Shown: positions 11,417 to 30,152 of the stretch, piece after piece
Layout: every line of letters starts with the position of its first letter
How positions within the stretch are numbered: position 1 is the first letter of the stretch
DNA from: Thermoproteota archaeon
GTDB lineage: Archaea; Asgardarchaeota; Jordiarchaeia; Jordiarchaeales; Freyrarchaeaceae
Reading direction: 5' to 3'
Assembly: GCA_029258835.1 (NCBI GenBank)
Contig: JAPDJY010000053.1
Span: forward strand, 14,006-78,005
Length of the DNA: 64,000 nucleotides
Notes under the pieces: generated by a model
What the model was told of the DNA's origin: nothing
What the model saw: the letters and a program-made list of their open reading frames with translations, nothing else
Database searches by the model: none
Position numbers and translations under genes: made by a program

Positions 11417-12931
11417 TTATGGCATTGACAGCCTACCTGGGTGCATGATGAAGTTCGGGTCAATAACCTCTCTAAACCGCCTTAAGAGGTCATAGTATGC
11501 CTTAGCCCTAGCAAACGTTAGCGGGGCATGCACGTACGGGTCAGGCCTATAGTTCAGCCACCCTTTATCGAGGAATATCTCCGTAGTGACGCGGTTCACC
11601 TCCTGCACACGACGCACATCCTCAGGATCAGTATAATCGAAGCATACGATAGGCATACAAATTGCCTGGCGGCAGTGGTCAATGCTGGCTATCCACATAA
11701 CCGGAGGGAAACCATACTCCTCCAGCTTCTGATTGTAAATCTCCGCGAATTCCGCACAGTTCTTCCATGGGGTATACCAGGTAATGAACAGGAATCCGGC
11801 GTTCCATAGCGAGTATGGGATGGCGATCTTGTTTGGTTTGCGGAGCCTGCTTTGGATTTGCTTGGGGTGTAGCTTCCACTCCTTTATTTCGTGGCCTGTT
11901 TTCGCGTTGTATTCTTTGGCTAGTTCATGTATCTTGTTAACTGTGAAGTCGAGTTCTTCTTTGCTGTGGCACCAGATCTCGAAGTTCATCCACCATCGGG
12001 GGATGCCGAGTTTCTTGTAGAACTCGTAGTCTGTTGGGACTTTCTCCTTAGGCCATCGGGTCATGACAAGGGGCCAGTTTCCTCCCTGCACCATTACGAG
12101 GTGGTCTGCTATGCCTAGCTCGTACTTTGACACTTCTAGGGTGAAGTCTTGCATGTCGTATGGGTTGTCCATTCCATATGCAATTATTGTCTTGTGGTGT
12201 GGGTGGGGGACTATTTTTATTGCGAGCTTGGTGATGACGCCCATTGTGCCTTGGGCTCCTAGGAAGAGGCCGTCGAAGTTTGGTCCTAACCCCCACCTGT
12301 AGAATGGCTTTGCTCCGGGTAGAGACCAGCTTCCGGTTCTGACTATTTCGCCTGTTGGGAGTACGATTTCCATGCCTAGTACCATGTCTGCCTGTGGGCC
12401 ATACCTTGCTGTGACCATGCTGAATCCTCTTTCGAGGGCGTCGCCGACCACGGTTGCGGCTGGCGGTGCACCGTCGGGAACCGGGGGAGCCCAGTCTGGG
12501 TAGTATTCTTCAGGGCAACTGAGGGATATCCTCTATGTTGCCTTTCTGAAGTATGCCCAGACTTTGCCGCTTCTTACCCCCGGCTCCAGTACGGCGTATC
12601 TTGCGTCGGTGTTGACTTCTATTATGCGGTCCATTCGTGATAGGTCTAGTAGGATTCCTCCTGGCTGTACTAGGGGGGTTGCGTATCCGCCGCTTAGTCC
12701 TCCTGCGCATGGGGTTACGGGTATGTGGTTTTCATTTGCTAGGATCAGAATTTTTCTCACTTCTTCGACGTATCTGGGTCTCACGACTACTTCTGGTACT
12801 GTTGCTTCAAGCCCCATTATCCCTCTTGAGAGGTAACTGTACCGCATCGCGATGTCTGACGAGACGAACTCTTTCCCTACTATGCTTTCCAGCATCTTTA
12901 CGATGTCAGGTGTAACTTCATTATAACTCAC
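11417..12931 (-). CDS. FAD-binding oxidoreductase (GlcD/D-lactate dehydrogenase-like), interrupted by a 36-nt BHB intron; 492 aa spliced
   Basis: ORF-track halves 12533-12931 and 11417-12451 are in one frame, separated by a TAG inside the insert; PEVVVRP, GGILLDLSRM, GAQGTMGVITKL, DPNFIMHPG motifs. Confidence 0.88.
12508..12543 (-). other. BHB-type intron in mRNA (36 nt)
   Basis: central helix UCAG/CUGA, bulges AA^A and AG^A, inner stems GGCAAC/GUUGCC and GAGG/CCUC, distal exon helix AGUCUGGG/CCCAGACU; splicing gives ..YFRKYYPDW.. Confidence 0.8.
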
Positions 12932-27943: not shown

Positions 27944-28357
27944 ATGGTGATAGAAAGAACAGCCGAAGTAAGCCAAAAAGCCGTGGAAAGGATAAACAAA
28001 CTTCTCAAAGAAGAAAACTACCCGGGAAACATAGACATACTGCTAATAGACCGGTTTGGAAACCTAGTAGCTCAAAGGATTAGGTACTCAGACATAGAGG
28101 AAGCCATGGAAAGCACATTTACGCTAATAGCAAGCTGCAACACAATATCGAAAACCTTTGCTCAAGGCGATGCTACTGAATGCATCATACGCGGGGAGAA
28201 AGGGTACATAATAGCAGTTGAGGTAGAGCCAACTATCTTGGTAGCTGCGGGAATACCGGATAGGCAACTAGGCATAATGCTTCAAAGACTAAGAAGCACT
28301 GCTAAGAAGATAAAGAAAATAATAGAGGAAGACGCAATGGAAAAAGTTACCGTGTAA
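27944..28357 (+). CDS. roadblock/LC7-domain protein
   Basis: LLIDRFGNLV ... IIRGEKGYII ... LGIML pattern. Confidence 0.75.
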   Translation: MVIERTAEVSQKAVERINKLLKEENYPGNIDILLIDRFGNLVAQRIRYSDIEEAMESTFTLIASCNTISKTFAQGDATECIIRGEKGYIIAVEVEPTILVAAGIPDRQLGIMLQRLRSTAKKIKKIIEEDAMEKVTV

Positions 28358-28605
28358 TCTAATTTAGACATTAAAAACTTGGAAGTGCAAGCTTCACCAC
28401 ACACATTTTAATTCTTCCATAGCTAGATGGCAGGGCTTTCCCCCTTTATCCTTCTGCGCAGCTTCCGCCTTTCTCCTCCTCTAAATGAAACGGCTTCCTT
28501 TTCATCGCTTATCTTCTTAGTATTTCTTATTTCTAAAAAGGGAAACACTACGCAGTGATCTCCCTAGTAAATTTTAAAAGTGTGTAACGTTTTATTTTTC
28601 TTCGA

Positions 28606-28738
28606 GGTGCCGGTAGCTCAGCCTGGGAGAGCGCAGGACTGTGGACTGGCAGGGGCAGGCAGTAAGTGGTAAAGCTGAATCCTGAGGTCGCGGGTTCGAC
28701 ATGGAGGTTTAGCTTCCACGAAAGTCCCGCCCGGCACC
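28606..28738 (+). tRNA. tRNA-His(GUG) with encoded G-1 and three BHB introns (28645-28664, 28666-28679, 28701-28724)
   Basis: acceptor (G)GTGCCGG/CCGGCAC(C), D stem GCTC/GAGC, anticodon stem CAGGA/TCCTG with loop CT-GTG-GA, T stem GCGGG/CCCGC with loop TTCGACT after splicing. Confidence 0.93.
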
Positions 28739-28799
28739 CTCATTTTGCTTTTTCACCCCTTTAACATCCAGGGAAACCGTTAAGATTTTATTCTTTCTC

Positions 28800-30152
28800 T
28801 TGGTAGGGTTGTCCCGGCTTACGGGGGTGTTTGGGTCGGTTAAGTATAGGGTTCCACGAGGCTTCAGAGATTTCCCCCCAGAGGTAGCCATACTTAGGAA
28901 AAAAGTCATAGAGATCGTCGAGGATGTCTTTGAAAGGTTTGGTTTTGACCCGATCGAGACGCCGGTCATCGAGTATTGGGAGACACTTAAGGGAAAGTAT
29001 GGTGATGAGGTTGAGTCCAAGCTACTTTACAGGTTTCAGGATCCCTGGAGCGAGGAGTGGTTGGCTTTAAGATATGATTTAACCGTTCCGCTAGCGAGGT
29101 TTGTGGCGAGCCACGCTCCCCCCCTACCCTTTAAAAGGTATCATATTGGGCGTGTTTGGAGGCATGAGAGGCCACAGAGGGGAAGGTACAGAGAGTTTTG
29201 GCAGTGTGACGCTGACATAGTAGGTTCACCTTACCCTGAAGCAGACGCGGAAGTCATCGATGTGATGTGTGAGGTAATGAAGGCCCTAAGCTATAAGCGT
29301 TTCAGGGTGAGACTTAACGACAGGAGGATGCTTAGAGGGGTCTTCGAGGAGGAACTTAGAATATCAAAGTACGGGGACGAGAAAACCCTAGAAGTTTTCA
29401 GGGCAATAGACAAGCTTGACAAGATAGGAAGAGAAGGCGTCAGGGAGGAACTCCTGAGGACAGGGTTGAAAGGAGGTGAAGTCCAAAAAATAATGGAAAC
29501 GGTGGAGGTTTCAGGAGAGCCGGAGGAAACCTTACAGTTCGTTGAGGAACGGTTCGGAGGAAACGAGAACATTAAGGCAGCGCTAAGCCACCTTTCAGGC
29601 ATACTTGATAACTTAACTCATAAGGGGAAGGTGACCGTGGATCTGAGCATGGTTAGGGGGCTGGACTACTATACGGGCCCCATCTTCGAAACCTACATTG
29701 AGGAGCCAAAGATAGGGGCTCTGGCTGGGGGAGGACGCTACGATGACCTAATAGAAAGGTATGGTGGACCGAGAACGCCGTCAACAGGTGTAAGTATTGG
29801 AATAGAGAGGGTAATAGATGCAGGGCTTGAGCTCGGAATGTTCAGCCTTAACCAAAAAACGAAAACTAAAGTTTTTGTCGTTAATATGGGATTAGAGCAG
29901 CGAGGCTACGCCCGGAAAGTAGCTGAGGAAATTAGGAAAAGCGGATTAACAGTGCAGGTAGACCTTATGAGGAGAAGCTACAGGAAGCAGCTCGAGTACT
30001 GTGACAAGAAGGGAATACCATACTTAGTGTTTATAGGAGATAGGGAAACGCGAACGGAAACAGTAACTCTCTACATAAAGAGCACGGGGGAAAGATATGA
30101 GGAAATACCCCTCCAACAGGCGGTAGAAGTCATGCTAAGGAAGAGCCGCTAG
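28800..30152 (+). CDS. hisS: histidine--tRNA ligase
   Basis: PRGFRDF, LRYDLTVP, RGRYREFWQCD, RGLDYYTG, GGGRYD. Confidence 0.97.
   Translation: MVGLSRLTGVFGSVKYRVPRGFRDFPPEVAILRKKVIEIVEDVFERFGFDPIETPVIEYWETLKGKYGDEVESKLLYRFQDPWSEEWLALRYDLTVPLARFVASHAPPLPFKRYHIGRVWRHERPQRGRYREFWQCDADIVGSPYPEADAEVIDVMCEVMKALSYKRFRVRLNDRRMLRGVFEEELRISKYGDEKTLEVFRAIDKLDKIGREGVREELLRTGLKGGEVQKIMETVEVSGEPEETLQFVEERFGGNENIKAALSHLSGILDNLTHKGKVTVDLSMVRGLDYYTGPIFETYIEEPKIGALAGGGRYDDLIERYGGPRTPSTGVSIGIERVIDAGLELGMFSLNQKTKTKVFVVNMGLEQRGYARKVAEEIRKSGLTVQVDLMRRSYRKQLEYCDKKGIPYLVFIGDRETRTETVTLYIKSTGERYEEIPLQQAVEVMLRKSR

Follow-up and report, generated by a model that had tools for sequence, protein, structure and literature searches.

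The 64-kb window (the whole stretch of DNA analysed here, to which all positions refer) contains a heavily interrupted tRNA-His(GUG) gene situated ~60 nt upstream of hisS, the gene for histidyl-tRNA synthetase, and 2.5 kb downstream of a gene encoding an EndA paralogue (Table 1). Read from its 5′ end, the tRNA gene comprises G-1, the acceptor strand GUGCCGG, a normal D arm, the anticodon stem strand CAGGA and the beginning of the anticodon loop, CUGUGG, from which the 3′ stem strand UCCUG is separated by 35 bases, i.e. nt 38 and 34 extra ones. The 3′ half continues with the variable loop, GCGGG, UUCGAC, 24 extra bases, U, CCCGC, CCGGCAC and the discriminator C73; no CCA is encoded, and a T-rich tract follows at 28743-28755. 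G-1 (G28606) is encoded in the genome and lies opposite C73 (C28738) in an 8-bp acceptor stem, an end pair that is identical in all orthologues. The locus is wider than the interval 28634-28730 given in the initial annotation, but the three introns that had been placed there, at positions 37/38, 38/39 and 59/60 (hereafter A, B and C), were all recovered at the same coordinates by a scan for the BHB geometry, defined as a central helix of 4 bp that has a bulge of 3 nt on either strand, with cleavage behind the second bulge base. Removing 28645-64, 28666-79 and 28701-24 in silico leaves a 75-nt product with four intact stems that ARAGORN calls tRNA-His(gtg), in agreement with the earlier view that this is a real tRNA-His gene, and the cuts defined by the rule produce an exact 7-nt anticodon loop and an exact 7-nt T loop.

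Table 1. Coordinates of the tRNA-His gene, its exons and introns, neighbouring features and Jordarchaeum counterparts
Feature	Position	Strand	Description
EndA paralogue, 308 aa	25152..26078	+	PF01974 + PF02778; PDB matches 5x89, 1a79
TATA-like AT-rich box	28570..28579	+	AATTTTAAAA; read from sequence; 27-36 nt upstream of G-1; putative promoter
tRNA-His(GUG) gene	28606-28738	+	133-nt precursor
Exon 1	28606..28644	+	G-1, acceptor 5′ strand, D arm, anticodon stem 5′ strand, loop nt 32-37 CUGUGG
Intron A, 20 nt, 37/38	28645..28664	+	CUGU 28639-42 / GCAG 28659-62; bulges GG^A, UA^A; inner CUG/CAG
One-nucleotide exon (best-supported model)	28665..28665	+	A = nt 38; nt 38 is constant (6/6 sequences) only if taken as the last A of GCAG YA A
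Intron B, 14 nt, 38/39, hBH	28666..28679	+	CAGU 28660-63 / GCUG 28674-77; bulges AA^G, AA^U
Exon 3	28680..28700	+	Anticodon stem 3′ strand, variable loop, T stem 5′ strand, T loop nt 54-59
Intron C, 24 nt, 59/60	28701..28724	+	Strict hBHBh′; UUCG/CGAA, bulges AC^A, AG^U
Exon 4	28725..28738	+	U60, T stem 3′ strand, acceptor 3′ strand, discriminator C73
Histidyl-tRNA synthetase gene (hisS)	28800..30152	+	Pfam tRNA-synt_His 1.3e-49
tRNA-His, Jordarchaeum L002	1505-1651		
tRNA-His, Jordarchaeum L003	1515-1656		
tRNA-His, Jordarchaeum L004	1506-1654		
tRNA-His, Jordarchaeum L005	1506-1655		

The gene and its genomic setting

The expectation that standard tools would fail on this gene was also borne out. 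Over the whole 64-kb window, ARAGORN reported 0 tRNAs from the unspliced gene and Rfam found nothing at gathering thresholds, the unspliced locus scoring 17.6 bits in a whole-genome Rfam tRNA search against a cut-off of 29; when the T-loop insert alone was removed, ARAGORN modelled one 34-nt intron in the anticodon loop and miscalled the gene as tRNA-Gln(CUG). In the host genome (a 2.7-Mb draft in 91 contigs, completeness 94.7%), the sole match of a tRNA-His query at E<=0.001 was the gene itself, and a crude anticodon-arm screen of the genome gave no further tRNA-His candidate. The public runs that contain the window sequence are marine, sediment and hydrothermal-vent metagenomes. No public RNA run is listed for the tRNA stretch, and in the sole RNA run sharing the wider region the contig ends at 28477, within the neighbouring gene.

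The position of the tRNA upstream of hisS is kept in four Jordarchaeum loci, which belong to genomes of the same family, and in the close strain L029. In the sister family (Freyr-type genomes), the ~1.5 kb around hisS was searched in six genomes and showed nothing resembling tRNA-His, and an outgroup tRNA-His was found there neither by its 5′-end pattern nor beside hisS. An A/T box similar to that of the window occurs at equal distance upstream in the orthologues, and the gene probably has its own TATA-like promoter. A gene for a Roadblock/LC7-domain protein (27944-28357, plus strand, Pfam E = 3e-6) lies just upstream of the tRNA. The 308-aa EndA carries ~130 extra N-terminal residues ahead of the EndA N-terminal and catalytic domains. 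A second EndA paralogue of 190 aa (PF01974/PF02778), encoded on contig C1, has as its closest solved chains 3p1z_B, 3ajv_B and 2zyz_B, which are crenarchaeal catalytic subunits, and looks like a catalytic subunit of the crenarchaeal type. Besides these two paralogues the genome encodes one RtcB ligase, and the EndA pair together with RtcB presumably constitutes the splicing machinery for the introns described here.

Interruptions are not limited to this gene. ARAGORN detected 8 tRNAs genome-wide without its intron mode and 23 with it, some of them with implausible introns of 450-700 nt, and Rfam placed 12 tRNAs above its cut-off in the 2.7-Mb genome, so that most tRNA genes of the host are evidently hidden by introns. 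A genome-wide census combining BHB removal with ARAGORN was set aside as too coarse for counting, since it returned many calls that kept residual inserts and did not recover tRNA-His itself. A tRNA-Tyr(GUA) gene (contig C30:1115-1253, plus strand) has 64 extra bases in its anticodon loop; considered as a second example of tandem introns, it was set aside as ambiguous, either one hBH intron or two or three successive introns fitting the insert. Two protein-coding genes of the window contain BHB-shaped inserts, one of 36 nt (12508-12543, minus strand; central helix 4/4, inner helix 6), whose removal by the BHB rule lengthens the open reading frame, from 133 aa to 493 aa, and one of 29 nt (33340-33368, plus strand; central 4/4, outer 3, inner 6). 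The two inserts suggest that mRNAs of this host undergo splicing of the tRNA type.

Overlapping motifs in the anticodon loop

Intron C is the simplest of the three. The scan gave it a full central helix (4/4), an outer helix of 5 bp that corresponds to the T stem and an inner helix of 7 bp (UGGAGG/CUUCCA), which makes it the perfect T-loop BHB that had been described from the first reading, and this strict BHB would be removed independently of the others. It occupies the same site in all sequences compared, with central helices of 4/4, outer helices of 5 bp and inner helices of 3-7 bp; the central helix shows GU/AU changes among the orthologues, and in the inner helix two pairs have changed on both strands in those of Jordarchaeum, a case of covariation.

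The 34 extra bases of the anticodon loop have a more intricate organization. In the precursor, intron A has a complete central helix (4/4) and 3 inner pairs but an outer helix of 0, which becomes the 5-bp anticodon stem once B has been removed, the other two values remaining the same. Intron B combines its 4/4 central helix with an outer helix of 4 bp (CAGG 28656-59 / CCUG 28681-84) and a 7-nt loop where an inner helix would otherwise stand, the scan counting 1 inner bp. Both CAGU and CAGG lie within intron A, as had been claimed when B was first described as built partly from the sequence of its neighbour, and the central helices of A and B are mutually exclusive because nucleotides C28660-G28662 are common to both. 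Intron A holds three copies of GCAG (28649-28662, GGCAGGGGCAGGCAG), and these repeats also yield the CAGG that mimics the anticodon stem; relative to Jordarchaeum, which has GGGGCAG, the three copies may reflect a local duplication. Because GCAG occurs three times, there is also a weaker, register-shifted route in which A28661 serves as the one-base exon and the mature tRNA is identical.

The possible ways out of this arrangement were enumerated by an exhaustive search of successive BHB excisions ending in the 7-nt loop CUGUGGN, with either canonical central helices or 3/4 central pairs. In the window, excision of B followed by that of A was the sole canonical route; the same held for L029, and in L002 and L003 it was the sole relaxed route. 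A one-step BHB route was found in none of the six sequences, even under relaxed rules, and no route starting with A was found, even when 3/4 central pairs were allowed. Such an outcome is not in itself extraordinary. After dinucleotide shuffling of the whole insert, 13% of the shuffled sequences still had some canonical BHB route, and when B alone was shuffled, 2.1% had a canonical route whose outer helix reached 4 bp or more, and 2.1% had, at the exact cut sites, a sum of central and inner pairs that equalled or exceeded the one observed. The motif logic alone is thus only moderately unlikely by chance, and the comparative evidence is the stronger support.

Conservation of the introns and of a proposed one-base exon

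This evidence comes from six sequences, namely the window gene, L029 and the orthologous genes of four Jordarchaeum genomes (L002-L005). The tRNA-His of L002, L003 and L005 is identical to Candidatus Jordarchaeia, Jordarchaeum and Jordarchaeales loci, and the window HisRS is ~71% identical to theirs. Scans of sequence collections for further members of the window genus gave one close strain, the other hits being repeat copies of the Jordarchaeum loci. Across the two genera the exons hardly vary, exon 1 being identical or nearly so in all orthologues and the anticodon stem showing one compensatory A-U to G-C change, whereas the introns diverge to ~70% identity overall and also in length. The Jordarchaeum genes share with that of the window the location upstream of hisS, introns at 37/38, 38/39 and 59/60, the single A and the mutually exclusive central helices. 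They differ in having four introns, including one in the D arm (position 22/23 by the BHB rule, 16-19 nt, central helix UGGG/CCUG or a 3/4 variant) that is precisely absent from the window gene, and in a B intron of 17-20 nt with an inner hairpin of 3-4 bp and a degenerate central helix.

In intron A, CUGU/GCAG and the bulges GG^A and YA^A are constant and the inner helix varies. Intron B measures 13-20 nt. Its central, outer and inner helices amount to 4/4/1 pairs in the window (shuffle p 0.021), 4/5/1 in L029 (0.006), 3/3/4 in L002 (0.006), 3/4/4 in L003 (0.003), 1/3/3 in L004 (0.11) and 2/3/4 in L005 (0.015), but the BHB spacing [1 nt][hairpin or loop][4 nt][2 nt] before U39 is kept in 6/6 sequences. 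L004 and L005 have a weak central helix (1/4 and 2/4, respectively), and the fit there is better with the register displaced by one. The hot-spring genus thus retains the inner hairpin of B with a decayed central helix, and the marine genus has lost the hairpin and possesses perfect central and outer helices; both forms resemble relaxed motif classes (hBH, HBh′).

At a closer range, L029 (a metagenome contig) and one DNA run represent strains that differ from the window at three places: nt 59 (28700), a bulge base, is T instead of C, as it is in most orthologues; one nucleotide is deleted in the loop of B; and G28655 is replaced by T. The last change adds pairs to the inner helix of A and to the outer helix of B and abolishes the alternative A28661 register. 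None of the three changes (0/3) breaks a motif pair, in what is a very small sample of strains.

The nucleotide lying between A and B deserves particular attention. In the window, AA flanks both ends of B, and three pairs of cuts lead to the same intermediate. Because of this repeat the window sequence by itself does not fix the cuts of B, and the one-base exon rests on the cut rule together with L003 and L004. Across the six sequences the base following GCAG YA is A in 6/6, but the base preceding U39 is A, A, A, C, G and A, respectively, and A28665 is favoured as nt 38 because only that model gives an identical mature tRNA in all six. The single A between the two introns, already part of the initial annotation, consequently finds its support in the orthologues, but in the window taken in isolation it depends on the cut rule. 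Two introns separated by a one-base exon are the best-supported model of the insert, mainly through the geometry conserved at the exact cuts in two genera.

Proposed order of excision and competing explanations

If this model is right, the precursor would be cut by the two-paralogue EndA and rejoined by RtcB, the 34 extra bases of the anticodon loop being two abutting introns around the exonic A28665 (nt 38). Intron B would be excised first, from a fold whose CAGU and CAGG strands belong to intron A; ligation of A28665 to U28680 would then complete the canonical 37/38 BHB of A, and the subsequent removal of A would leave the loop CUGUGGA. The overlap of the central helices would prevent the release of A38 as a free nucleotide by simultaneous cutting. 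Several in silico results agree with this sequence of events. The outer helix of A goes from 0 to 5 bp upon removal of B in 6/6 sequences, and the minimum-energy fold of the B-spliced intermediate is exactly the canonical BHB of A. When A is removed first, B drops to 0-2 central pairs and 0 outer pairs (in the window, central 2/4, outer 0 and inner 1), and in Jordarchaeum it retains only its inner hairpin. Each of the two introns thus depends on the other, and under BHB rules the sole productive path takes B before A.

How far this order is obligatory, as had originally been claimed, is a more delicate matter. B-then-A stands as the sole BHB-consistent productive route, but A is not incompetent before B leaves, for in every precursor it is already a relaxed HBh′ motif with a 4/4 central helix and 2-5 inner pairs. 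The HBh′ class is reportedly cut by broad-specificity EndA. Because a premature cut at A is possible for this reason, a productive outcome would require the order without the order being enforced, and the firmer reason for it is the loss of the central and outer helices of B if A leaves first. Simple energy models do not favour the fold of B over that of A in the precursor arm (nearest-neighbour predictions at 37 °C of -5.2 kcal/mol for the B fold versus -7.3 kcal/mol for the A fold plus anticodon stem), and in whole-precursor folding even the anticodon stem gets almost no probability. We infer, soundly enough but from in silico evidence, that the order is obligatory for the productive route. 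Considered in its entirety, the explanation in which 28606-28738 is the one working tRNA-His(GUG) gene of an Asgard archaeon (Jordarchaeia) from marine hydrothermal sediment, with three BHB introns, excision of B before A, a one-base exon and splicing by EndA and RtcB, is in our opinion somewhat probable. The bolder proposal, that A38 is a true exon between overlapping, mutually exclusive protein-spliced introns, with the pre-tRNA acting as a conformational switch and this layout occurring in at least two Jordarchaeia genera, is about as likely as not.

The competing explanations depart from this reading at different points. The closest of them accepts both introns but no fixed order, with A and B leaving in any sequence or A leaving first, a broad-specificity EndA reading adjacent helices and the dependency being an artefact of the strict BHB rule. 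The HBh′ nature of A in every precursor speaks for it, as do the degenerate central helices of B in L004 and L005, where the gene is nonetheless conserved and the enzyme must therefore tolerate weak central helices, and relaxed BHL and hBH motifs are reportedly cut by (alpha-beta)2 and epsilon2 enzymes (PMC4033280). However, after removal of A almost nothing is left of B in the window and only the inner hairpin in Jordarchaeum, the A-first route is absent even with 3-of-4 rules, and simultaneous cutting would free A38 as a mononucleotide, all of which makes this explanation unlikely. We consider it quite improbable that B is instead nested within A in a twintron-like fashion, spanning 28664-77 or 28665-78, with nt 38 provided by A28678 or A28679 and no micro-exon involved: the AA on both sides of B (UAA|G...GAA|U) accommodates such cuts, which yield an identical intermediate, but the BHB rule places them at 28665/66 and 28679/80, and with a C or a G before U39 in L003 and L004, shifted cuts would alter an otherwise conserved exon.

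The variation of that same base (A, A, A, C, G, A) also counts against a single 34-nt intron removed in one step through an unconventional motif, as nt 38 would then have to come from it. ARAGORN can indeed model the insert in this way once intron C has been removed, but it then reads the wrong anticodon (Gln CUG); no one-step BHB route exists in any of the sequences compared, excision at the outermost pair of BHB cuts would take out 35 nt and shorten the loop to 6 nt, and such an intron seems very improbable. A draft genome in 91 contigs and a gene that standard tools do not call might, finally, invite the view that this is a decaying pseudogene and that the real tRNA-His lies in the unassembled part of the genome. 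Exons that are near-invariant across two genera against diverging introns, the compensatory changes, the conserved place upstream of hisS and the integrity of all motifs in three strain variants make us give it hardly any credence.

Jordiarchaeia tRNA genes are among the most interrupted known, and the accurate removal of many small introns from them is a standing question. In Freyarchaeia and Atabeyarchaeia, 92-95% of tRNA genes bear introns, frequently more than one per gene and frequently non-canonical (Valentin-Alvarado et al. 2024, PMC11291895), and a census of these families counted 2.2 intervening sequences per gene, with up to five, and found that tRNAscan-SE misses 30% (Goswami et al. 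2026, bioRxiv 10.64898/2026.10.13.758758). The window gene comes from the same lineage and conforms to this pattern of many non-canonical introns and poor calling by software, with three introns, some in non-canonical positions, that are missed by standard tools. The census of Goswami et al. 2026 (bioRxiv 10.64898/2026.10.13.758758) groups positions within three nucleotides, and two abutting introns would probably be counted as one in those published censuses. A search by terms of Valentin-Alvarado 2024 and Goswami 2026 brought up no reference to abutting introns, to one-base exons or to the order of splicing.

The parallel with Thermoproteales drawn in the initial annotation is apt in that nested multi-intron tRNAs are known there, but less so for the host, an Asgard archaeon of the Jordiarchaeia, where multi-intron tRNAs have already been published. 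As far as their summary in Soma et al. 2013 goes (PMC3728597, citing Sugahara et al. 2008), some archaeal nested introns have a last BHB that forms only after the others are processed. The likeness, within what that summary covers, is that the full BHB of one intron exists only after another leaves, which implies sequential splicing; the window gene differs in its reciprocal dependency, in a B motif made from the sequence of A, in its 1-nt exon and in its Asgard host. Pre-tRNAs of Cyanidioschyzon merolae contain BHB introns in the D arm, at 37/38 and in the T loop, and the intermediates observed experimentally indicate that removal of the 37/38 intron comes last (Soma et al. 2013, PMC3728597). 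Each of these BHBs can fold independently and the order is set by stability or position, whereas in the window gene it would follow from shared nucleotides. Single-nucleotide exons are documented for the spliceosome in Arabidopsis (PMC4674806) and in Fusarium CYP621A (PMC12940212); they are likewise exons of minimum length joined on both sides, but spliceosome-defined and produced by a different chemistry, in contrast with the one-nucleotide exon proposed here, defined by two overlapping BHB motifs. In the literature covered, where the nested introns of Thermoproteales are represented by the statement of Soma et al. 2013, we found no published description of such an exon. Nested and multiple BHB introns are known; new here, on the best-supported reading, is that two BHB introns abut on a single exonic nucleotide and depend on each other.

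This gene leaves the known mechanism as it is, since nested introns, the recognition of BHB motifs by EndA and the joining of the cut ends by RtcB had all been established before. It illustrates why annotation software misses or miscalls such tRNAs, and it indicates that counts of intervening sequences can underestimate the number of introns, since abutting introns merge into one insertion. If the proposed reading is true, no exon of the BHB/EndA system could be smaller than A38, which would have both of its phosphodiester bonds made by RtcB, with the fold of B presented first and that of A second, and the gene would carry a built-in test of the extent to which relaxed motifs are readable. For the Jordiarchaeia it would provide a compact natural test case in which, because the two introns share nucleotides, the order of cutting decides between a working sole tRNA-His and a dead-end product.
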